A stretch of DNA of 64,000 nucleotides from Eledone cirrhosa (Eukaryota). The stretch covers positions 271,498,001 through 271,562,000 of the forward strand of contig OZ024742.1 of NCBI GenBank assembly GCA_964016885.1. Direction: 5' to 3'. Positions 229 through 56,542 of this stretch are shown one piece after another. Both the position numbers and the translations under genes were made by a program. The stretch's first letter is position 1, and every line of letters starts with the position of its first letter. The notes under the pieces are model-generated. The model was not told the DNA's origin, searched no databases, and saw only the letters and a list, made by a program, of their open reading frames with translations.

Positions 229-308
<80 letters not shown>

Positions 309-339
309 TTATACATATACATGTATATGTATATATATA

Positions 340-903
340 ATTATATAAGTATGTATTCGTACATACATATATGTATACATACGTACAGTAGTATGTATAG
401 TTAATACACACATACACACACATATATATATGTACGTATGGATTTACCGAACATTTATTATAATGCTCAGTTTGTTTATAAACAAACATCCCGAATTAAG
501 CCGTACAGTGTTTAGCAACCATCGTTGTCCTTTTGTTCAACATTGTCAAAGGAACGACGTAATCGTTTCCAGCTTATTACCTATCGTCAGCACCGTATAC
601 CTTCCTGCCAGATGATTGAATGTCTGAAAGTATATACTTTCCTTATGCATATTAACGGCTGAGCAGCCTAATTGTCATATCGAGTAAGTTAATCGGCCGG
701 AGGCACCGAAAACAAAGTATGGAAAAAGTGAAACGAAATTTCATTTCTCACTCTTAGTACGGCTGTTACTTAAATATAATATGTATACGTACATACATAT
801 ATGTATACAGATGTACAGTAGTATGTATATATATACATACATGTACACATATATATATATGTACGTGTGGATTTACCGAATATTTATTATAATGCTCGGT
901 TTA
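340..903 (-). mobile_element. Non-autonomous hammerhead-bearing repeat (family E), ~430-nt monomer plus partial tandem copy
   Basis: Sequence at 351 recurs at 781; homologous to 49735-50585; abuts (TA)n. Confidence 0.7.
555..595 (-). ncRNA. Minimal type-I hammerhead ribozyme (family E)
   Basis: Minus strand CGGTG-CTGACGA-taggt-aata-agctg-GAAA-cgat-TA-CGTCG. Confidence 0.65.
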
Positions 904-1006
904 TACTACTTAGAAAATAGAAGCTTTCATCGCATTTTTTTACTAAAGAAATTTTAGCCTGGTAATGGTGTTTAAATCACTCAGAGAAATGGAAATAGAT
1001 GAGTTT

Positions 1007-1077
1007 TGACGTACATGGGAGTCGAACCCACATCTTTCGTTTTCCAGACCACTGTGCTTCCATTACACCAACACATC
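1007..1077 (-). tRNA. tRNA-like unit 1, anticodon GGA
   Basis: Cloverleaf with intact B box GGTTCGACTCC; loop CT-GGA-AA; mismatch in the anticodon stem. Confidence 0.6.
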
Positions 1078-1263
1078 ACCCATCTCCTTCCATTCAAGTT
1101 AGAAGCTACATTATTAGCAAGTATGATGGCAAGTAAGTATATTTTGAAACAGCGAACAAGTTTTAAGTTAGAAAATAGAAGCTTTCACTGTATTTTTTCA
1201 TTAAGAAATTTCAGCCTGATAGTGTTGTTTAGAACACTCGGAGAAATAAAAAAAGAGTAGTAT

Positions 1264-1334
1264 TGACGCACATGGGAGTCGAACCCACATATTTGGTTAT
1301 CAAGACTACTGTACTACCATTACACCAACACATC
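1264..1334 (-). tRNA. tRNA-like unit 2, anticodon TGA
   Basis: Intact A and B boxes; loop CT-TGA-TA; T7 run downstream. Confidence 0.65.
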
Positions 1335-1517
1335 TCCCATCTTCCATTCAAATTAGAAGTCACATTCTTAGCAAGAATGATGGCAAGTAAGTATGCTTTG
1401 AAACAGCGAACAAGTTTCAAGTTAGAAAATAGAACTTTTCACCATATTTTTTGGCTCAGGAATTTTAGCCTGATATTTGGCTTTAGAAACCTCAGAGAAA
1501 TGGAAAAAGATGAGTAT

Positions 1518-1588
1518 TGATGTACATGGGAATCGAACACACATCTTTGGTTATCCATACCACTGTGCTACCATTACACCAACGCATA
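1518..1588 (-). tRNA. tRNA-like unit 3, anticodon GGA (diverged)
   Basis: Array unit; G1 altered; T5 terminator at 1504-1508. Confidence 0.5.
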
Positions 1589-1775
1589 GCCCATATATTT
1601 CCATTTAAATTAGGAACTACATTCTTAGTAAGTATGACCGCAAGTATGTATGTTTTGAAACAGCGAACAAGTTTGAAATAAGAAAATAGAAGCCTTCACC
1701 CTATTTTTTCACTACAGAAATTTCAGCCTCATAGTGGGGTTTAGGACCCCCAGAGAAATGAACAAAGATGAGTAT

Positions 1776-1846
1776 TGACGTACATGAGAGTCGAACCCAC
1801 ATTTTTGGTTATCCAGACCACGGTGCTACCTTTAGACCCACACATC
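1776..1846 (-). tRNA. tRNA-like unit 4, anticodon GGA (diverged)
   Basis: Array unit; A box mutated. Confidence 0.45.
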
Positions 1847-2033
1847 ACCCATCCCGTTACATTCAAATTAGAAGTTACCTTCTTAGCAAGTATGATGGCA
1901 AGTAAATATGCTTTGAAACAGCGATGCAGTTTGAAATTAGAAAATAGAAGCCTTCACCGTATTTTTTCACTACAGAAATTTCAGCGTCATAGTGGGGTTT
2001 AGAACCCTCAGAGAAATGGAAAAAGATGAGTAT

Positions 2034-2104
2034 TGACATACATGGGAGTCAAACCCACATTTTTGGTTGTCCAGACCATTGTGCTACGATTACACTAACA
2101 CATC
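2034..2104 (-). tRNA. tRNA-like unit 5, anticodon GGA (diverged)
   Basis: Array unit; T-loop TTTGACT. Confidence 0.45.
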
Positions 2105-2291
2105 AGCCATCTCCTTCCATTCAAATTCGAAGTTACATTCTTAGCAAGTATGATGGCAAGTAATTATGCTTTGAAACAGCGAGCAAGTTTCAAATTGGAA
2201 AATAGAAGCCTTCACCGTATTTTTTCACTACAGAAATTTTAGCCTGATAGTGGGGGTTAGAACCCTCATAGAAATGGAAAAAGATTAGTAT

Positions 2292-2362
2292 TGACGTACA
2301 TGGGAGTCGAAACTAAATCTTTGGTTATCCAGACCACTGTGCTACCATTACACCAACACATC
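2292..2362 (-). tRNA. tRNA-like unit 6, anticodon GGA
   Basis: D and anticodon arms match consensus; T-stem mutated. Confidence 0.5.
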
Positions 2363-2560
2363 ACCCATCTCCTTCCATTCAAATTAGAAGTTACATTCTT
2401 AAAAATTATGAGGGCAAGTATGATGGCAAGTGAGAATGCTTTGAAAAAGCGAGCAAGTATCAAATTAGAAAATAGAAGCTTTCAACGTATTTTTTACTCG
2501 AGAAGGTTTAGCCTCATAGTGGGATTTAGAACCCTGAGAGAAATGGAAAAGGATGAGTAT

Positions 2561-2630
2561 TGACTACATTGGAGTCGAACCCACATCTTCGGTTATCCAG
2601 ACCACTGTGCTACCATCACACCAACACATC
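2561..2630 (-). tRNA. tRNA-like unit 7, anticodon GGA
   Basis: 1-nt deletion in the 3' acceptor strand. Confidence 0.5.
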
Positions 2631-2793
2631 ACCCATCTCCTTCCATTCAAATTGGAAGCTAGAATCTTAGAAAGTGTGAAGGTAAGTATGTTTTGAAACA
2701 GCGAACAACTTTGAAATTAGAAAATAGGAGCTTTCACCGTATCTTTTTACTAAAGAAATTTTAGCCCTCAGAAAAATGGGAAAAGAGGAGTAT

Positions 2794-2864
2794 TGACGCA
2801 CATGGGAGTCAAACCCACATAGTTGGTTAGCAGGACAACTGTACTACGATTACACCAACAAATC
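2794..2864 (-). tRNA. tRNA-like unit 8, degenerate (loop CC-TGC-TA)
   Basis: Array unit; U33 lost. Confidence 0.4.
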
Positions 2865-3052
2865 AAACATCTCCTTCCATTCAAATTAGAAGCTACATTC
2901 TTAGTAAGTATGATCGCAAGTCTGTCTGCTTTGAGACAACAAGCTAATTTTGAAATTAGAAAATAGAAGCTTTCACCATATTTTTTTACTAAAGTAATTT
3001 TAGCCTGATAGTGGGATTTAGAACCCTCAGAGAAATGAAAAATGAGGAGTAT

Positions 3053-3123
3053 TGGCGTAAATGGTTGTCGAACCCACATCATCGGTTATCCAGACCCCTG
3101 TGCTACCATTAAACCTACACATC
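3053..3123 (-). tRNA. tRNA-like unit 9, anticodon GGA (diverged)
   Basis: Array unit; several stem mismatches. Confidence 0.45.
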
Positions 3124-3309
3124 ACCCATCTCTTCCATTCAAATTGGAACCTAGAATCTTAGCAAGTATGAGAGCAAGTAAGTATGTTTTTAAACAGCGA
3201 GCAATTTGAAATGAGAAAATAGAAGCTTTCACAGTATTTTTTTTACTAAAGAAATTTTACCCTGATAGTGGCGATTAGAACACTCAGAGAAATGGAAAAA
3301 GATTTGTAT

Positions 3310-3380
3310 TGGCGTACATGGCAGTCGAACCCAAATCTTTGGTTATCCAGACCACTGTGCTACCATTACACCAACACATC
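3310..3380 (-). tRNA. tRNA-like unit 10, anticodon GGA
   Basis: Close to consensus; T5 terminator. Confidence 0.55.
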
Positions 3381-3555
3381 ACCCATCTCCTTCCATTCAA
3401 ATTGGAAGCTAGAATCTAAGCAAGTAAGTATGTTTTGAAACAGCGAAAAAGTTTCAAATTAGAAAATAGAATCCTTCACCGTATTTTTTCACTACATAAA
3501 TTTCAGCCTCATAGGGGTGTTTAAACCCCTCAGAGAAATGGAAAAAGATGAGTAT

Positions 3556-3626
3556 TGGCGTAAATGGGAGTCGAATCCACATCTTCAGTTATACAGACCA
3601 CTGTGCAACCATTACAACAACACATC
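3556..3626 (-). tRNA. tRNA-like unit 11, anticodon GTA (diverged)
   Basis: Loop CT-GTA-TA; A box mutated. Confidence 0.4.
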
Positions 3627-3811
3627 AGCCATCTCTTCCATTCAAATTAGAAGCTACATACTTAGTATGTATGATCGCGAGTATGTATGTTTTGAAACAG
3701 CGAGCAAGATTGAAATTAGAAAATAGAGGCTTTCACCATATTTTTTGGTTAAAGAATTTAAGCCTGATAGTTGGATTTAGAAACCTCAGAGAAATGGAAA
3801 AAGATGAGTAT

Positions 3812-3882
3812 TGACGTACATGAGAGTCGAACCCACATTTTTGGTTATCTAGACCACTGTGCTACTATTACTCCAACACATC
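3812..3882 (-). tRNA. tRNA-like unit 12, anticodon AGA
   Basis: Loop CT-AGA-TA; T5 terminator. Confidence 0.5.
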
Positions 3883-4070
3883 ACCCATCTCCTTCCATTC
3901 AAATTGGAAGCTAGAATCTAAGCAAGTATGAGGGCAAGTAAGTATGTTTTGAAACAGCGAGCAACTTTGAAATTAGAAAATAGATGCTTACACCGTATTT
4001 TTTTTACTAACGAAATTTTAGCCTGATAGTGAGGTTTAGAACCATCAGAGAAATGGAATAAGATGAGTAT

Positions 4071-4140
4071 TGAATGCATGGGAGTCGACCCCACCTCTTT
4101 GGTTATCCATTCCACTGTCGTACCATTACACCAACACATT
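4071..4140 (-). tRNA. tRNA-like unit 13, anticodon GGA (degenerate)
   Basis: Array unit; B box and acceptor stem mutated. Confidence 0.4.
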
Positions 4141-4327
4141 TCCCATCTCCTTCCATTCAAATTAGAAGCTACATTCTTAGTAAGTATGATCGCAAGTATG
4201 TATGTTTTGAAACAGCGAGCAAGTTTGTAATTAGAAAATAGAAGCTTTCACCGTATTTTTTTACTAAAGTATTTTTAGCCTGTTAGTGGGGGTTATAACC
4301 CTCAGAGAAATGGAAAAAGATTAGTAT

Positions 4328-4398
4328 TGACGTACATGGGAGACGAACCCAAATCTTTGGTTATCCAGACAACTATGCTACCATTACGCCAACACATC
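4328..4398 (-). tRNA. tRNA-like unit 14, anticodon GGA
   Basis: A box TGGCGTAATGG; T5 terminator. Confidence 0.5.
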
Positions 4399-4584
4399 AC
4401 CCATCTCCTACCATTCAAATTAGAAGTTACATTCTTAGCAAGTATGATGGCAAGTAAGTATGCTTTGAAACAGCGAGCAAGTTTGAAACTAGTAAAGTGA
4501 AGCTTTAACCATATTTTTTGGCTAAAGAATGTTAGCCTGATAGTTGGCTTTAGAAACCTCAGAGAAATGGAAACAGATGAGTAT

Positions 4585-4655
4585 TGACGTACATGAGAGT
4601 CGAACACACATTTTTCGTTATCTAGACCACCTTACTACCATTACACCAACACATA
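4585..4655 (-). tRNA. tRNA-like unit 15, anticodon AGA (diverged)
   Basis: Array unit with loop CT-AGA-TA. Confidence 0.4.
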
Positions 4656-4841
4656 ACCCATCTCCTTCCATTCAAATTAGAAACTACATTCTTACAAAGT
4701 ATAATGGTAAGTAAGTATGTTTTGAAACAGCGAGCAAGTTTCAAATAAGAAAATAGAAGCTTTCACCGTATTTTTGACTAAATAAATTCTAGCCTGATAG
4801 TGGGGATTAGAACCCTCAGAGAAATGGGAAAAGAGGAGTAT

Positions 4842-4912
4842 TGATGCACATGGGAGTCAAACCCACATAGTTGGTTATCAAGACAATTGTACTACCATTA
4901 CACGAATACATC
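4842..4912 (-). tRNA. tRNA-like unit 16, anticodon TGA (diverged)
   Basis: Loop CT-TGA-TA; same subfamily as units 2 and 8. Confidence 0.45.
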
Positions 4913-5099
4913 ACCCATCTCCTTCCAATCAAATTAGAAAGTACATTCTTACAAAGTATAATGGTAAGTACATATGTTTTGAAACAGCGAGCAAGTTTGA
5001 AATTAGAAAATAGAAGCTTTCACCGTATTTTTTTACTAACGAAATTTTGGCCTGATAGTCGGCTTTAGAATCCTCAGAGAAATCGAAAAAGATGAGTAT

Positions 5100-5170
5100 T
5101 GACGTGCATGGGAGTCGAACCCACCGCTTTGGTTATCCATTCCACTCTGCTACCATTACACCAACACATC
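5100..5170 (-). tRNA. tRNA-like unit 17, anticodon GGA
   Basis: Intact A and B boxes; T5 terminator; altered 5' side of the anticodon loop. Confidence 0.55.
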
Positions 5171-5357
5171 ACCCAACTTCTTCCATTCAAATTAGAAGCT
5201 ACATTCTTAGCAAGTATGATGGTAAGTAAGTATGTTTTGAAACAGCGAGCAATTTTGAAATTAGTAAATAGAGCCTTTCACCGTATTTTTTGAATAAAGA
5301 AATTTTAGCCTGATAGTTGGCTTTAGAAACCTCAGAGAAATGGAAAAAGATGAGTAT

Positions 5358-5428
5358 TGACGTACATGGGAATCGAACCCACATCTTTGAATATCCAGAC
5401 CACTGTGCTACCATTATACCAACGCATC
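5358..5428 (-). tRNA. tRNA-like unit 18, anticodon GGA
   Basis: B box GGTTCGATTCC; T5 terminator. Confidence 0.55.
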
Positions 5429-5614
5429 ACCCTTATATTTCCATTCAAATTAGAAGCGACCTTCTTAGTAAGTATGATCGCAAGTATGTATGTTTTGAAA
5501 CAGCGAACAATTTTAAAATTAGAAAATAGAAGCCTTCACCCTATTTTTTCACTACGGAAATTTCAGCCTCATATTGGGATTTAGAACCCTCAGAGAAATG
5601 AAAAAAATGAGTAT

Positions 5615-5685
5615 TGACGTACATGAGAGTCGAAACCACATTTTTGGTTTTCTAGACCACTGTGGTACCATTACACCAACACATC
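5615..5685 (-). tRNA. tRNA-like unit 19, anticodon AGA
   Basis: Loop CT-AGA-AA. Confidence 0.5.
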
Positions 5686-5884
5686 ACCCATCTCCTTCCA
5701 TTCAAATTCGAAGTTACATTCTTAGCAAGTATGATGGCAAGTATGATGGCAAGTAAGTATGCTTTGAAACAGCAAGCAAGTTTGAAATTAGAAAATAGAA
5801 GTTTTCACCGTATTTGTTTACTCAATAAATTTTAGCCTGATAGAAGGGTTTAGAACCCTCAGAGAAATGGAAAAAGATGAGTAT

Positions 5885-5955
5885 TGACGTGCATGGGAGT
5901 CGATCCCACCCCTTTGGTTATCTATTCCACTGTGCTACCATTACACCAACACATC
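5885..5955 (-). tRNA. tRNA-like unit 20, anticodon AGA (diverged)
   Basis: Loop AT-AGA-TA. Confidence 0.45.
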
Positions 5956-6090
5956 ACCCATCTCCTTCCATTCAAAGTGGAAGCTAGAATCTAAGCAAGT
6001 ATGAGGGCATGTAAGTATTTTTTTACTAAAGATATTTTAGCCTGATAGTGGGATTTAGAACCCTCAGAGAAATGGAAAAAAGATTAGTGT

Positions 6091-6161
6091 TGACGTACAT
6101 GGGAGTCGAACTCAAATCTTTGGTTATCCAGACCACTGTGCTACCATTACACCAACACATC
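6091..6161 (-). tRNA. tRNA-like unit 21, anticodon GGA
   Basis: Consensus acceptor, D and anticodon arms; T6 terminator. Confidence 0.55.
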
Positions 6162-6333
6162 ACCCATCTCATTCCATTCAAATTAGAAGTTACATTCTTA
6201 GCAAGTCTGATGGCAAGAATGATGGCAAATAAGTATGTTTTGAAACAACAAGCAAGTTTGAAATTTTTACTATAGAACTTTTAGCGTGATAATGTGGTTT
6301 TGAACACTCAGAGAAATGGAAAATGATGAGTAT

Positions 6334-6404
6334 TGACGTGCATGGGAATCGAACCCACCTCTTTGGTTATTCAGACCACTGTGCTACCATTACACCAACA
6401 CATC
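6334..6404 (-). tRNA. tRNA-like unit 22, anticodon GAA
   Basis: Intact A and B boxes; loop CT-GAA-TA. Confidence 0.6.
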
Positions 6405-6591
6405 TCCCATCTCCTTCAATTGAAATTAGAAGCTACTTTCTTAGCAATATGATGGTAAGTAAGTATATTTTGAAACAGCGAGCAAGTTTGAAATTAGAAA
6501 ATAGAGGATTTCACCATATTTTTTTACTAAAGAGATTTTAGCCTAAATAGTGGGATTTAGAACCCTCAGAGCAATGGGAAAAGATGAGTAT

Positions 6592-6662
6592 TGACCTACA
6601 AGTGACTCGATCCCACATCTTTTGCTATCCAGATCACTTTGCTACTATTACATCAATACATC
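6592..6662 (-). tRNA. tRNA-like unit 23, degenerate (GGA)
   Basis: Many stem mismatches. Confidence 0.35.
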
Positions 6663-6861
6663 ACCCATCTGCTTCCATTCAAATTAGAAGTTACATTCTT
6701 AGCAAGTCTGATGGCAAGAATGATGGCAAGTAAGTATGTTTTGAAACAACAAGCAAGTTTGAAATTAGAAAATAGAAGCTTTCACCGTCATATTTTACTA
6801 TAGAACTTTTAGCGTGATAATGTGGTTTAGAAAACTCAGAGAAATGGAAAAAGATGAGTAT

Positions 6862-6932
6862 TGACGTGCATGGGAGTCGGACCCACCTATTTGGTTATTC
6901 AGACCACTGTGCTACCATTACACAAACACATC
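6862..6932 (-). tRNA. tRNA-like unit 24, anticodon GAA
   Basis: Near-duplicate of unit 22. Confidence 0.45.
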
Positions 6933-7119
6933 TCCCAACTCCTTCAATTGAAATTAGAAGCTACTTTCTTAGCAATATGATGGTAAGTAAGTATGTTTTG
7001 AAACAGCGAGCAAGTTTGAAATTAGAAAATAGAGGATTTCACCATATTTTTTTACTGAAGAGATTTTAGCCTAAATAGTGGGATTTAGAACCCTCAGAGC
7101 AATGGGAAAATATGAGTGT

Positions 7120-7190
7120 TGACCTACAAGTGAGTCGATCCCACATCTTTTGCTATCCAGATCACTGTGCTACTATTACACCAATACATC
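7120..7190 (-). tRNA. tRNA-like unit 25, degenerate (GGA)
   Basis: Near-duplicate of unit 23. Confidence 0.35.
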
Positions 7191-7377
7191 ACCCATCTGC
7201 TTCCATTCAAATTAGAAGCTACATTCTTAGAAAGTATGATGGCAAGTAAGTCTGTTTTGAAACTGCGAGCAATTTTGAAATTAGAAAATAGAAGCGTTCA
7301 CCGCATTTTTTTACTCAAGAAATTTTATCCTGATAGTGGTGTTTAGAACCCTCAGAGAAACGGAAAATGATGTGTGT

Positions 7378-7448
7378 TGATGTACATGGGTGTCGAACCC
7401 ACATCTTTGGTTATCCAGACCACTGTGCTACCATTAGACCAACACATC
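7378..7448 (-). tRNA. tRNA-like unit 26, anticodon GGA
   Basis: Well-paired acceptor and T stems. Confidence 0.55.
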
Positions 7449-7636
7449 ACCCATCACCTTCCTTTCAAATTAGAAGCTACATTCTTAGCAAGTATGATGG
7501 TAAGTGTGTATGTTTTGAAATAGCGAGCAAGTTTGAAATTAGAAAATAGAGGATTTCACCATATTTCTTTACTAAAGAAATTTTAGCCTAAATAGTGGGA
7601 TTTAGAACCCTCAGAGCAATGGGAAAAGATGAGTAT

Positions 7637-7707
7637 TGACCTACAAGTGAGTCGAACTCACATCTTTTGCTATCCAGATCACTGTGCTACTATTACACCA
7701 ATACATC
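7637..7707 (-). tRNA. tRNA-like unit 27, degenerate (GGA)
   Basis: Near-duplicate of units 23 and 25. Confidence 0.35.
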
Positions 7708-7894
7708 ACCCATCTGCTTCCATTCAAATTAGAAGCTACATTCTTAGAAAGTATGATGGCCAGTAAGTCTGTTTTGAAACTGCGAGCAATTTTGAATTTA
7801 GAAAATAGAACCGTTCACCGTATTTTTTTGATCAAGAAATGTTATCCTGATAGTGGTGTTTAGAACCCTCAGAGAAATAGAAAATGATGTGTGT

Positions 7895-7965
7895 TGATGT
7901 ACATGGGTGTCGAACCCACATCTTTGTTTATCCAAACCACTGTGCTACCAATAGATAAACTCATC
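7895..7965 (-). tRNA. tRNA-like unit 28, degenerate (GGA)
   Basis: Near-duplicate of unit 26 with a damaged 5' end. Confidence 0.35.
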
Positions 7966-8164
7966 ACCCATCACCTTCCTTTCAAATTATAAGCTACATT
8001 CTTAGCAAGTATGATGGTAAGTGTGTATGTTTTGAAACAGCGAGCAAGTTTGAAATTAGAAAATAGAAGCTGTCACCGTATTTTTTTACTAACACACATA
8101 CACACATTCAGACATAGGTAAAACACACATACATACATTCAGATATAGGTAACAAACATATAAT

Positions 8165-8242
<78 letters not shown>

Positions 8243-9421
8243 CTATGTTTTCTCTCTGATTGCATAAATTCCACAAAACACTCCATAAATTATACAGCTA
8301 TTATCTAATACTTTACCAATTTAAAATACTTTTTCTCAAAGGCACATATATATATATATATATACATATATATTTCTTTTAAAATATACCCATCTTTCTA
8401 CCTTATTTCAATGTTATTTATTATACATTATATAATACTAGTTACTCATTCTATATCACTCCTATTCATCACTTCCCTTTCCTCACTTTTTTCCTTATTC
8501 TTTTAGTTTCTAACCTCTAATCTTTCCCTTTTCTTCCTAGATACTTCTCAATTGTCATTATTACTCACCACAATATATCTACTCTTCCTTCTTCCATCCA
8601 ATCACTGGCCAAAAAATTCACTATTACACTTTTAAATACTTTATAGTATCACTTTGAAAAATCCTTCGTAAACATAAACATTTTTTTGACGTTAGATTAT
8701 TCATCCTCAATTCATTATTTTGTTCTCCCTTTCATGCTCATCTACATTCTACATATTACACATATTCATCCACTCTTCTACTTCTTTTCACAATATTTCC
8801 TTAATTACATTACTATGTTTATACTTTTTTAATAATACATATCAACAATTTATTTCCATCGCACATATTATTAAACCCTTTAATATTCAAACCTTAACTT
8901 AATATTATTCTTAATACATATTAACAATTTCTTTTCATCGCACATATTATTAAACCCTTCAATATAGAAACCTTAATTTAACATTATTCTTAAATTTTTC
9001 TCTTCGTTAATTTTCAAATTCTTTTAATTTATATATTATCTTCAACGGTTTTTTAACCTCTCTCTGTAAAACAATATATTTTTCTCAGTTATAAAAGCTC
9101 TCTCACTCTCTTTCACCTATCTCACCTCCTATCTCATCATTCTTTATTATACTCCTGCCCATCCATTCTTTACTCTCATCTCCTCCTCTTGTGCACCTGC
9201 CCCCTCAATTTTTTTCAAAATATCACACATCAATCTAAAACTAATTTTCATATGTTGATGTAAAACTGCACAATTCACAAGTGTTTTTTAACTTTCATAT
9301 AATGTCTCCCTATTTTATCTGACGAACACGCAAATGTCATCGCATGATGATATTTGTTTTTGAAATGCGCATAACAAAATACATGGAACTCTTTTAAACA
9401 TCTTTTGATCTTATATATATA

Positions 9422-49610: not shown

Positions 49611-50585
<975 letters not shown>

Positions 50586-50623
50586 GTCTATATATATATA
50601 TATATATATATTTCTATACTTTC

Positions 50624-50714
<91 letters not shown>

Positions 50715-51748: not shown

Positions 51749-52222
51749 CTAAAGTTCTCGAATTTCATTGCTGATTTGTGCCGGCAAACAAATAGTTCGT
51801 TCAATTCTACTGTTAAGAAGGGTTTTACTGAAATTAAGAATTTGGAAGAGCTCCATATTACAGAGCCTGCAATGGGACATACCAGTGTGATAGGCCTTTG
51901 CTCTTGACAGTATTGTCCAACTGATCTCGTATTCAATGCTTGCATTTCTGAGTTGCCAGATTTTGTTGGCGAGAGTTGTTGTATTTGATTGATTTTTATT
52001 AATCATCGAATGCCTATGCACGTACCATCGTTTTTTACATTTACCAGCCGTGGAACCAATGTAATACCATGCCAGGCTACCTGAGTTTATAGTACACAGG
52101 CATACTACATTTTTCTTCAGGCATCTGTTTAGTAGAGGGCATTTGTCAGGTAAGTGGCAGTTGCATAAAGATGCTTTCCTATGCGACGGTTCTACTATAT
52201 GATTTTGTAGATTGTTATGCAT
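51749..52222 (-). pseudogene. Penelope GIY-YIG endonuclease domain
   Basis: YYIG motif with flanking Cys/His ligands typical of PLE endonucleases. Confidence 0.82.
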
Positions 52223-52883
52223 GGGCTGCGAATTAGGTTTGTTGATGTATTGTGGTGGTGCGCTCGGGCGTGTGTTCGGTTGCGATGATGTAATATGCGT
52301 GTGTTTTGTATTTGGTGATATGGTACTTAATTGCGGGCTCCTTGAATTATGAATTCTTTTGTAGTTAATTTTGTGAATGTGCGATTCTATGTTGTTGGCA
52401 ATGGAGTATGATGGTTTGATAGTTTTTCTATTACAGATTTTATTATATTTATGAATTTTAGGGAAGTGCTTGTCAACTAATTTAAAGGAGGTGAAAGGAA
52501 GCTTAGTTTTAATAGAGGAGTTAAAAATTGGATTAAACCATAAGTAGTTTCTATTTCTGCATCTTCTATGACTACTAGGAGTTTTTGTATTAGCATTCTA
52601 TTCAATTAAATTACGTGTATGCTGCCAATTTATGCATTTAGTCCTAGGATTGTTGCTTCTATGGTGGTGGGAAGAATTACTAACATTAAGTGTGTTTCTA
52701 TTTTTTGCATCTGTTATGTATCTGAGTCGCCCTATGTGGCCTACCTTAAGTAAAACTAAGTTGTAGTAATACATAGGAATACAAGCGAAGTCATGAACTC
52801 GCCATCCACGTACGTTTAAACTATCCATGATAAGTAGTTTTCACAAACTCTTATCGGATCACATTCAACGATATATTGTTATC

Positions 52884-53100: not shown

Positions 53101-55116
53101 TGTCTGTCCGTAATGTGGAAACTGTTGACGAGCATTGTGTCTGAGGAAATCTACCATCACCTCCACACAAACAACTTGTTACCGGACGAACAGAAAGGAT
53201 GCCGAAAGAAGTCACGTGGTACAAAGGACCAGTTGCTTATTGATAAGATGGTAATGGGGAATTGCAGGAGGAGACACACTGATCTTGCCATGGGATGGAT
53301 AGACTACAGAAAGGCATTTGACATGGTGCCTCATTCCTGGATCACCAAGAGCCTGGAGATCTTCAGGGTGGCAGATAACATCAGACAGTTGCTAGGCAGG
53401 AGTATGGGGTCCTGGGAGACAGAGTTGACATCAACTGGAGTATCCTTGGGAAGCGTGAAGATCAAGAGAGGTATCTTCCAGGGAGATAGCCTGTCCCCTC
53501 TGTTGTTTGTCCTTGCCCTGATGCCCTTGACCATTATGCTGCGAAAAGTGAGAGCAGGATACAAGTTGGGAAGGGGAGAGCTTACCATCAATCACCTCCT
53601 CTTCATGGACGATCTTAAGCTCTTCGGGAAAAGTGAGAAGGAGTTGGATGTGCTTGTTGACACTGTCCGTATTTTCAGCAGTGATATATGTATGCAGTTT
53701 GGTATTGGTAAATGTGGAGTCATTGTGATGAAGAGGGGTAGGTTGAGCAGAAGTAACGGGATCCAGATACCAACAGGTGAGATGATAAAGGAAATTGACT
53801 CTGAGGAAGGATACAAGTATTTGGGCGTTCTGGAGGCTGATGGCATAAAGAACAAACAAATGAAGGAATTGTTAAGAACTGAATACATTCGCAGAGTAAG
53901 GAGCGTATTGAAGTCACATCTGAACAGCAGAAATGCCATAAGCGCAGTAAATTCCCGAGCTGTGTCTATTATCAGGTACAGTGCGGGAATTCTGAGATGG
54001 AATGTTGCTGAACAAAAAGAAATGGATAGGAAGACTAGGAAGCTATTGACTATCTACAACATGTTCCACAAGAGGAGTGATGTCGATAGACTCTACCTAA
54101 GGAGATCTGAGGGTGGAAGAGGTCTTATCAGCATAGAGGACTGTGTTCAGATGGAGAAAAACAACCTATACAAATACGTGACCTATAGTAAGGAGCCAAT
54201 GCTCAGAACTGTACTGAAGGAGGGGACAGTAGGCCAGGGGATGTCCAAGGAGGAAATAACATCAAGGAGGAAGAGCAGCCTTAAGGGAAAATCCCTTCAT
54301 AGTACCTTCTTTGAGAAAACTGAATTTAGAGATCCACAGACATGGAACTGGTTGATAAGAGGAGACCTTAAAAAGGCTACAGAAGGAATGCTAATGGCTG
54401 CGTAGGAGCAGGCCCTCAAATCGAAGTGGTTGAAGCACCATATCTACAAGGAGGAGGCTAGCCCACTGTGCAGGATCTGTGGAGAGAGAGAGGAGACTGT
54501 GGCTCACATTGTGTCCGAGTGTAAACACCTAGCCCAGACCCACTATAAGGGCTGGAGACACGATGTGATGGGCAGGGTGATCCACTGGCACCTGTGCAAA
54601 GTAAACAATTTACCACATTCTGAGAAATGGTATGAGCATAGGCCAGAGGCGGTGATGGAGAACAATCAGGTGAAGGTGCTGTGGGATTTTAGGATACAGA
54701 CGGACAAAAAACTGGAACACAATAGACCTGACCTGGTGGTTGTGGACAAAGAAAAAAGATCGTGCCTGATTGTGGATGTGGCCTGCCCGTTCGACACGAG
54801 AGTGCAAGAGAAGGAGAGGGAGAAAATTAACCGATACCAGGACCTAAAGTGGGAGGTGAAAAGTATTTGGAACTGCCATGAAGTCAAAGTGATCCCGATT
54901 GTCATAGGCGCACTGGGGACTATCTCCAAAAGTTTCCAGGGATGGTTAAAGAAAATCGGCCCCTTCACGCTTTTTGGAACGCTTCAAAAGGCATGCTTGC
55001 TTGGAACAGCAAGAACCCTCCGATACGTCCTGAATATCTGAGGCTGCAGGTAGTGGCTTGATATTCAATCTAACGGACTTTCCAGTTAACCAACATCAAT
55101 GACTGAGATTCAAGGA
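53101..55116 (+). mobile_element. 5'-truncated, nearly intact R4/Dong-clade element (RT-CCHC-RLE) inserted in (TAA)n
   Basis: Continuous frame 53101-55041 with one in-frame TAG at 54403. Motifs [45 protein letters not shown]; same family as 15046-18396. Confidence 0.93.
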
Positions 55117-55153
55117 ATAACAACAACAATAATAATAATAATAATAATAATAA

Positions 55154-56412
55154 GAGATTTTCAAAATATCCCCCGTTGTCTGGAGGTTTTTGTCATTCAG
55201 TATGAATACATGGAAAACGACACTCCTTTTGAATAGTGAAACAAAATCACTGGAAGCTGGAGAAGTTAATATTAATTGTGGAATTTTTCAGGGTGACTCT
55301 TTATCACCACTTTTATTCTGCATCGCACTTATACCATTAAGTAAAATTCTCAATGAAACAAAACATGGATATAAAGTCTATGACAAAACCATTAATCACT
55401 TGTTCTACAAGGATAAACTGAAACCATTTGCAAAAAATGTTGAACAATTGCAAGGGCTATTATCCACTGTGGAGCAGTTCAGTGATGACATTAAAATGGA
55501 GTTTGGACTAGACAAATGCGCCAAAGCAACGTTCACCAGAGGAAAGCTGCTGAAGAGTTCAGACATTAATCTTGATCGGGGGAACGTGATAAGAGAACTT
55601 GATCAAGAAAAAACTTACAAATATCTAGGTGTTTGTGAAGGAGACGGAATCAAGCACTCGACAATGAGGGAAAGGGTAAGGAAGGAATGTTACCGCAGAG
55701 TAAGAGCAATCTTAAGAACGGAATTGAATGCAAGGAATAGGATCGATGCCATAAACACGCATGCCATACCAGTAGTAACCTACAGTTACAATGTCATCAA
55801 CTGGTCAAGCACAGAGATCCGTAGGCTCGATACAAAAATTCGAAAATTCTTAACCATGCACAGAATGCATCACCCTAAGGCAGATATAGATAGAATATAT
55901 CTCCCTAGGCAAGAAGAAGGACGTGGGTTAATCCAGTTAGACATTGCGTTGAAAACTGCAACAATTGGATTATCTACATATCTAAGGGAATCACATGATT
56001 GGATGATCAAACTCGTTTTGAAACACGAAAGCATCAAAAGATCATATTCCATTACAAAAGATGCACAAAGATACAGTAATGGACTACACATTTCAGAAGT
56101 CCCATTTACTGCTGAAATGGAAAGCACAGAAATAGCAAAGCAGGTAAAAGTAACTGCAAAGAAAGAACTGCTACAGAAACTGGCTAAGAAATGGCAAGAA
56201 AAGCCTTTGTATGGAAAACACCCAGAGCGAGCTAACAATCCTGATGTTGACAAAACTTTAACCCATCAGTGGTTGGCATCCTCTGGACTGAAATCGGAGA
56301 CTGAAGGACTGATTATATCAGCACAAGATCAGTGTCTGCCAACAAAAAATTTCCAAGCCAACAAAATAAAAAATGGATGCAGCCCATTATGCCGTGTATG
56401 CAAAAAACAACC
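55154..56412 (+). mobile_element. Second R4/Dong-type family fragment (RT C-terminal half)
   Basis: [35 protein letters not shown]; starts right after (TAA)n. Confidence 0.88.
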
Positions 56413-56542
56413 TACTTAGGAGTCGACATGTACCAAAGGAATCTGCCCTGCGATTGATTATATTTATCGCACCCTTGGGTATCTCGAGTGTCTCACTCAG
56501 AAGAGAGGGGCTGCAAATGCCAGACCATATGGAAGTACCTCC
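56411..56542 (-). repeat. 132-bp inverted-repeat arm (partner at 48561-48692)
   Basis: Followed by TTAA at 56543-56546. Confidence 0.85.

Follow-up and report, generated by a model that had tools for sequence, protein, structure and literature searches.

We analyzed a 64,000-nucleotide stretch of the Eledone cirrhosa genome (contig OZ024742.1 of assembly GCA_964016885.1, positions 271,498,001 to 271,562,000; hereafter the window). Positions 910-8093 are occupied by an array of 28 head-to-tail units of ~258 bp each, on the minus strand, and every unit contains a 71-nt tRNA-like head. We found that the 258-bp unit belongs to a mobile family that is spread through the genome and forms tandems, and that the array is not a selected tRNA gene cluster. 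The ends of the insertions lead us to suggest that the unit is probably a non-autonomous passenger of a Penelope-like element (PLE), with a tRNA-like head, no ribozyme, and secondary growth into satellites.

An earlier note on this DNA had described 28 tRNA-like heads in a tandem array on the minus strand, and this was borne out. The heads lie between 1007 and 7965 with a spacing of 206-270 nt, mostly 257-259, and Tandem Repeats Finder (TRF) gave a period of 258 over 910-6023 and 6264-8092. The features of the array are:

910..8093, minus strand: array of the tRNA-headed repeat, 28 units of ~258 bp, subfamily A.
5100..5170, minus strand: example of a 71-nt tRNA-like head, unit W12 (Rfam RF00005).
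7965, 7707, 7448, 7190, 6932, 6662, 6404, 6161, 5955, 5685, 5428, minus strand: 5' ends of the heads upstream of W12.
4912, 4655, 4398, 4140, 3882, 3626, 3380, 3123, 2864, 2630, 2362, 2104, 1846, 1588, 1334, 1077, minus strand: 5' ends of the heads after W12.
5171..5188, minus strand: purine-rich leader, -18 to -1 of the W12 head; predicted partner strand of the trailer (fold of a natural unit, pair counts).
5080..5097, minus strand: pyrimidine-rich trailer, +74 to +91, containing the T-run; other strand of the predicted 18-bp helix (fold, pair counts).
4953..5046, minus strand: spacer zone, unit positions 125-218, where insertion 3' ends cluster; putative zone of internal reverse transcriptase (RT) start.
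903..920, minus strand: array 3' end, which falls at unit position 168, among the commonest end classes of the family.
6264..7965, minus strand: recently duplicated part, units W01/W03, W02/W04/W06 and W05/W07 (pairwise distances).

The heads resemble tRNAs to different degrees. Tested one by one against Rfam RF00005, as the earlier note had proposed, 14/28 heads passed the gathering score for tRNA (29.9-50 bits) and 14/28 fell below it. Arrays of this kind swell tRNA gene counts: ARAGORN called 7/28 heads as tRNAs in this window alone. The layout of a type 2 promoter for RNA polymerase III (Pol III) is present in the sequence, as claimed. An exact A box was found in 12/28 units, a canonical B box (GGTTCRANYCC) in 6/28, and both boxes in only 4/28. 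A run of at least four T's follows 24/28 heads (e.g., T5 at 1504-1508), in agreement with the note. Serine tRNAs carry a long variable arm. The anticodon is GGA in 18/28 heads, and these heads have a 4-nt variable loop; six anticodons occur across the array, and position 37 is U in 25/28 heads. A serine anticodon combined with a 4-nt variable loop and U37 is not a normal eukaryotic tRNA. The agreement of anticodon and body and the purine at position 37 expected of a functional tRNA were not found.

We found that the head is no better conserved than the spacer, a caveat that the earlier note had itself raised. In the window array, divergence from the column majority was 9.1% in the head (181/1986) and 9.4% in the spacer (471/5015), and stems and boxes of the heads diverged by 7.7-10%. 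Relative to the majority of their own array, head and spacer differed by 9.3 vs 8.7% in the window, 8.4 vs 7.5% in a C3 array of 17 units, and 10.6 vs 8.6% in a C1 array of 6.9 kb. Stems, boxes and spacer decay alike in all three 4-7-kb arrays. Among 649 in-register units of a 276-kb satellite of the same family (below), the head was more variable than the spacer (5.6% vs 3.2%). In contrast, the genuine tRNA-Gln genes of this genome, which served as an internal control, were near-identical and their flanks differed. The conservation of gene over flanks that marks functional tRNAs was not seen in the arrays. An unmutated head scored 49.7 bits, compared to 68.4 for one genuine tRNA-Gln gene. The acceptor stem is changed in one subfamily (B), whose head scored 38.1 bits, yet this subfamily has 62 exact copies of a 77-mer. 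Its success despite the altered stem suggests that a promoter role for the head fits better than a tRNA role. These results show that the heads of inserted arrays are under no selection and that head and spacer decay evenly. They do not fit the amplified cluster of non-canonical tRNA genes that the earlier note had considered; its other proposal, a tRNA-derived satellite, is right for the array in its present state.

The unit is not confined to the window. With the unit as query, there were 2633 first-look candidate places in the 3.0-Gb genome, of which 40 were scored. A 32-mer from the head had 722 exact matches genome-wide, and the commonest 86-nt head region had 37 exact genomic copies. We sampled insertions from 38 loci chosen by whole-unit likeness and from 60 in the C1 part of the 32-mer list. 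After removal of duplicates of the window, one duplicate locus and one locus touching an edge, the sample comprised 102 insertions from 97 loci. Median insertion length was 547 bp in the whole-unit set and 384 bp in the 32-mer set.

The copies fall into four subfamilies (~258, 260, 270, and 271-290 nt) that differ mostly in the spacer. All common variant columns in the whole-unit set (14/14) were in the spacer (chance ~0.01, with columns taken as independent). The head thus seems to be retained in source copies. Pieces of one insertion shared 38.8% of variants, also across the inversion described below, compared to 13.5% between loci. On the tRNA-sense strand of dispersed copies, G>A changes (4.8%) exceeded C>T (3.0%), and T>C (1.7%) exceeded A>G (1.1%); these counts are not independent. 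The asymmetry may reflect damage to a single-stranded cDNA strand. We rejected A-to-I editing as the origin of the G.U pairs, as A>G was not in excess (1.1% vs 1.7% T>C).

The ends of the insertions have a polarity. Taking the tRNA-sense strand as the RNA, 68/102 insertions had two outer 3' ends, by way of an inverted arm, and 34/102 had one 3' end and one 5' end. None (0/102) had two 5' ends. Approximately 77% of 3' ends (131/170) entered (TA)n, compared to 10.8% (813/7547) of random flank positions. When mapped on one reference, 157/167 3' ends fell in clusters within unit positions 125-218; for subfamily B, ends scored at 208 belong slightly farther along, in a segment specific to B. A direct repeat at 230-300 nt was present in 61/102 insertions, and the upstream leader was still joined to the head in 69/102. 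These repeats and joins indicate that the template was longer than one unit or circular, and that the T-run was read through. Insertions pass the T-run and end 35-130 nt beyond it, contrary to the earlier view that each unit has its own terminator and no SINE-like body (SINE, short interspersed element). The family has the partial tandem with inverted arm and the few preferred, putative internal start sites of PLE-type insertions, and its (TA)n target is that of the Hydra and Naiad clades of PLEs. PLE anatomy has been described as partial tandems with an inverted 5'-truncated copy (PMC8557442). The 6.9-kb C1 array has the full signature: one arm is inverted, and each outer 3' end lies at (TA)n.

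We found one structure that stands out in the unit. The 18 nt before the head are predicted to pair with positions 74-91, after the head, in a leader/trailer helix of 18 bp whose commonest state has 14 Watson-Crick and 4 G.U pairs. The longest helix was 19 bp on the sense strand and 9 bp on the other strand, and 0/300 shuffles gave a helix above 17. The T-run lies within this predicted helix, which also speaks against its being a terminator. The leader and trailer are purine- and pyrimidine-rich tracts, and no compensatory change was found in them. Whole-unit folding was weak (circular z of -1.1 to -2.4 for the sense strand and +0.25 to -0.98 for the antisense strand; 6 units).

We rejected a ribozyme within the unit. 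Rfam gave no ribozyme match in the unit, and the hammerhead core CUGANGA was found in none of the 28 units, while the same scan found motifs in the PLE described next and in a repeat flanking the array (repeat X, below). Relaxed hammerhead cores in the unit were checked by eye only.

This genome contains an intact PLE with ends that match those of the unit insertions. A peptide encoded in the flank of one insertion (L005) had 7485 candidate matches genome-wide. In 11/12 fetched loci this peptide is part of an open 821-aa frame, which has the motifs RWT, DKT, CxCX5C, CxxC and CxH. PLEs of the Hydra clade are described as having RWK, DKT, CxCX5C and CxxC/CxH motifs, a hammerhead, and insertion at (TA)n (PMC8557442). 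The 821-aa PLE matches this description, with RWT standing for RWK; it is classed by motifs. The protein has 19 homologues, none of them named. There is a hammerhead core in the terminal repeat, and all copies of the terminal tail in 20 PLE loci (13/13, direct or inverted) lead into TA repeats. Many intact 821-aa frames, ~220-bp tandem repeats and a terminal hammerhead core were seen in this young Hydra-type PLE family (L054:2022-4487 and many other loci). In vitro, a purified PLE protein cuts AT-rich DNA on both strands, extends both of them, and initiates at internal positions of its RNA (PMC11167929).

The order at L005 is (TA)n, inverted and direct PLE pieces, 2.3 units, and (TA)n. The inner junction between PLE and unit has no TA, and the rest of the PLE tail is absent beyond it. 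We read this insertion, a single case in 102, as a chimera of PLE and unit formed by a putative template switch. A second candidate chimera, at L152, was rejected because (TA)n separates the PLE from the array.

Some insertions have grown into long arrays. Shared variants were above the expectation of a star history in all three 4-7-kb arrays (window, C3 and C1). The first seven units of the window array are recent duplicates: W01/W03, W02/W04/W06 and W05/W07 differ by 3-7%, compared to an array mean of 15.6%. These shared variants and recent duplicates indicate that duplication at the DNA level has acted. We rejected a one-step rolling-circle birth as a full account of the long arrays, because shared variants exceed the star model.

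A strand excess among the 32-mer matches pointed to C28:19,440,624-19,716,546 (L209-L216, L154-L173). We found there a 276-kb satellite of ~955 units of 290 bp, on the minus strand and of subfamily B. Its 5' end is at (TA)n and its 3' end is cut by other sequence. Dispersed copies seldom carry the letters private to this array (2 vs 35 and 1 vs 38 matches), so the array is a sink and not a source, and we rejected it as the master source. The family would thus show a route from retroposon to 7-kb array to 276-kb satellite inside one genome.

Based on these results, we suggest the following sequence of events. The A and B boxes of the head would let Pol III transcribe a source copy. The RNA would pass the weak T-run into the next unit, or be circular, giving a template longer than one unit. 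As judged from the insertion ends, a PLE endonuclease would nick both strands at (TA)n, and the PLE RT would start within the RNA at a few preferred sites in the spacer (125-218). Two primed strands would yield an inverted arm and a tandem, with 3' ends at both outer edges. Inserted copies then decay evenly, head and spacer alike. Some, as the shared variants show, grow into 4-7-kb arrays and one into the 276-kb satellite, presumably by duplication of DNA. If this is true, a PLE protein can act in trans on an unrelated Pol III-type RNA. Because the proposed partner is young and intact, the putative start sites are mapped and a chimera exists, the proposal is directly testable in the existing in vitro assay.

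Several observations weigh against this proposal. Pol III transcription, read-through or circle formation, and mobilization by a Hydra-type PLE are all deduced from sequence. Selection by likeness, to the whole unit in one locus set and to the head 32-mer in the other, favors young copies. The TA rule is broken by 39/170 3' ends, and 17/34 5' ends are also at (TA)n. A Pol III start would be marked by a pile-up of 5' ends at +1, and no clear one was seen; target-site duplications are unreadable in (TA)n. Local Pfam named no domain in the 821-aa protein, neither RT nor GIY-YIG, and its class therefore rests on motifs. We compared the unit with two PLE families (50 loci) and found no significant match, including to the terminal repeats; the best was 19/20 nt, antisense, with E ~0.02. 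A PLE-derived spacer was rejected for the same reason. Because the unit shares no significant sequence with these two families, we assign the partner from the anatomy of the ends and a single chimera among 102 insertions. In the window itself, the 3' end of the array (903..920) abuts a 5'-truncated copy of another TA-associated repeat and not (TA)n, and there is no inverted arm. For these two reasons the origin of the window array is inferred from the family.

The unit resembles several known systems. Animal non-long terminal repeat (non-LTR) retrozymes are likewise non-coding, ~170-400 nt, low in GC, and found as dimers to long arrays; they have been proposed to be non-autonomous PLE passengers and also grow into satellites (PMC7229834; bioRxiv 10.64898/2026.07.22.740005). 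The short tandem non-coding units of our family, from dimers to multimers (61/102 insertions with a direct repeat), agree with this. However, a type I hammerhead in each unit defines retrozymes, and the 258-bp unit has a tRNA-like head instead. Retrozymes of Xenopus are often homologous to PLE terminal repeats, unlike our unit in the two PLE families compared. Non-autonomous Chlamys PLEs such as MRC1 are also multicopy head-to-tail elements with microsatellite targets, in a clade without canonical hammerheads (PMC8557442). As described in the part of that source available, their sequences are usually similar to the partner's 3' end and no tRNA head is mentioned; by this description our unit is set apart. 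Amphibians have tandem repeats whose units measure 200-360 nt or more and include a tRNA-related segment: PolIII/TAN (newt), OAX (Xenopus), Rana/polIII and Hy/polIII (PMC10702118, PMC12054243). Their origin is given as unresolved and no PLE link is stated in the available text of these two papers ('Penelope' occurs 0 times), whereas here the end anatomy points to a mechanism. With tRNA-derived SINEs and SINE-derived satellites (PMC10702118) the unit shares an A/B-box head, subfamilies from few sources, neutral decay and secondary satellites. Unlike SINEs as described there, its insertions are multimeric, keep the upstream leader, have inverted arms in two thirds of cases, and lack a fixed 3' end or tail. 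The Pol III-type head of a classical SINE is thus present, but the monomer that starts at the head and has a fixed 3' end is not.

The schistosome Sm-alpha repeat is both tandem and dispersed and has a Pol III promoter and a hammerhead ribozyme; the 258-bp unit has no hammerhead. To our knowledge, every SINE with a named partner uses a LINE (long interspersed element), and known PLE passengers carry hammerheads or pieces of PLE. We found no tRNA-headed PLE passenger in the literature searched, whose coverage was partial and did not extend to Repbase or Dfam. The available part of a paper on Octopus vulgaris repeats (PMC13282606) contains nothing on such a family.

In a bolder version of the PLE proposal, the unit would be a tRNA-mimic circular-RNA retroposon, with head and 18-bp helix together taking the place of the hammerhead. 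The tRNA-processing enzymes would cut and ligate unit circles, and the PLE RT would travel around them, writing tandem arrays in one step. Such elements would be recurring, satellite-seeding 'Penelope SINEs' and would explain the amphibian Pol III tandem repeats. We consider this version doubtful.

An alternative is copying by a LINE (RTE, R4/Dong or other); the unit would then be a SINE-like RNA of tRNA origin, and twin priming would have produced the inverted arms. Insertions driven by LINEs are known to show a tRNA head, 5' truncation and inversions, and LINE remnants with RT domains are present in the window. However, the family has no single 3' end or tail, its ends fall in several clusters inside the unit, and the units are multimeric. 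The LINE-like RT frames in the window (53101-56419) are flanked by (AAT)n and not (TA)n, and the sole protein-coding chimera recognized is with a PLE, among loci screened with PLE probes only. We regard copying by a LINE as improbable.

A tRNA-derived satellite might instead have spread as DNA from large arrays, through extrachromosomal circles, Helitron-like rolling circles or repair capture. The existence of the 276-kb array, the excess of shared variants in long arrays over a star history, and the similar tRNA-bearing tandem repeats of amphibians (PMC10702118) are all consistent with this notion. Against it, the polarity of ends tracks the tRNA-sense strand (68 vs 0), the 276-kb array is a sink by its private letters, no fixed Helitron-like ends were seen at the insertions of the family, and pairing that includes G.U is confined to the sense strand (19 vs 9 bp). 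Spread as DNA is, in our judgment, quite improbable. Finally, the array might be a cluster of functional non-canonical tRNA genes, or be kept by selection as a TFIIIC barrier or a source of small RNAs. Such a function would account for the cloverleaf layout, the heads above the Rfam cut-off, the T-runs and the 37 exact copies of the head region, but is hardly credible given the equal decay of head and spacer, the more variable head in the 276-kb array, the six anticodons with U37, the low bit scores and the success of subfamily B, and for this array it is largely refuted.

The array in the window is flanked by other TA-associated elements:

8094..8246, no strand: 5' flank, a 31-bp CA/TA-rich doublet and then (TA)40, without an inverted arm.
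230..902, minus strand: repeat X, a partial-tandem repeat that ends in (TA)n and carries a motif like a hammerhead core at 590.
8246..9410, plus strand: older 5'-truncated copy of a Hydra-type PLE 3' region, with a hammerhead core at 9319 and an approximate right end; (TA)n from 9412.

Repeat X is joined directly to the 3' end of the array. It is TA-flanked, more copies lie at 49618-50686, and the motif at 590 (minus strand) reads CUGACGA...GAAA. Repeat X is possibly a retrozyme-like element. Elsewhere in the window, 51749-52597 (minus strand) contains an endonuclease-region remnant of a second, older PLE family with 55,571 first-look candidates genome-wide. Two 5'-truncated LINE-like RT remnants (53101-55100 and 55154-56419, plus strand) lie beside (AAT)n runs.

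We also considered tRNA-Gln as the parent of the head. The D-arms are alike, but among 26 loci the global score was 40, compared to 42 for an unrelated family, and tRNA-Gln therefore does not stand out as the parent. The genuine tRNA-Gln(UUG) genes form a cluster at C1:168.21-168.28 Mb (L083-L091), where they are interleaved with a repeated variant that has altered stems and in which ARAGORN reads a CUA anticodon. A different high-scoring tRNA-like sequence, with anticodons GGC, GAC, AGC, GTC and GGT, was found at ~1500-1574 of L068 and L070-L078; it lies inside a longer dispersed element that is rich in AT and contains an inverted segment.

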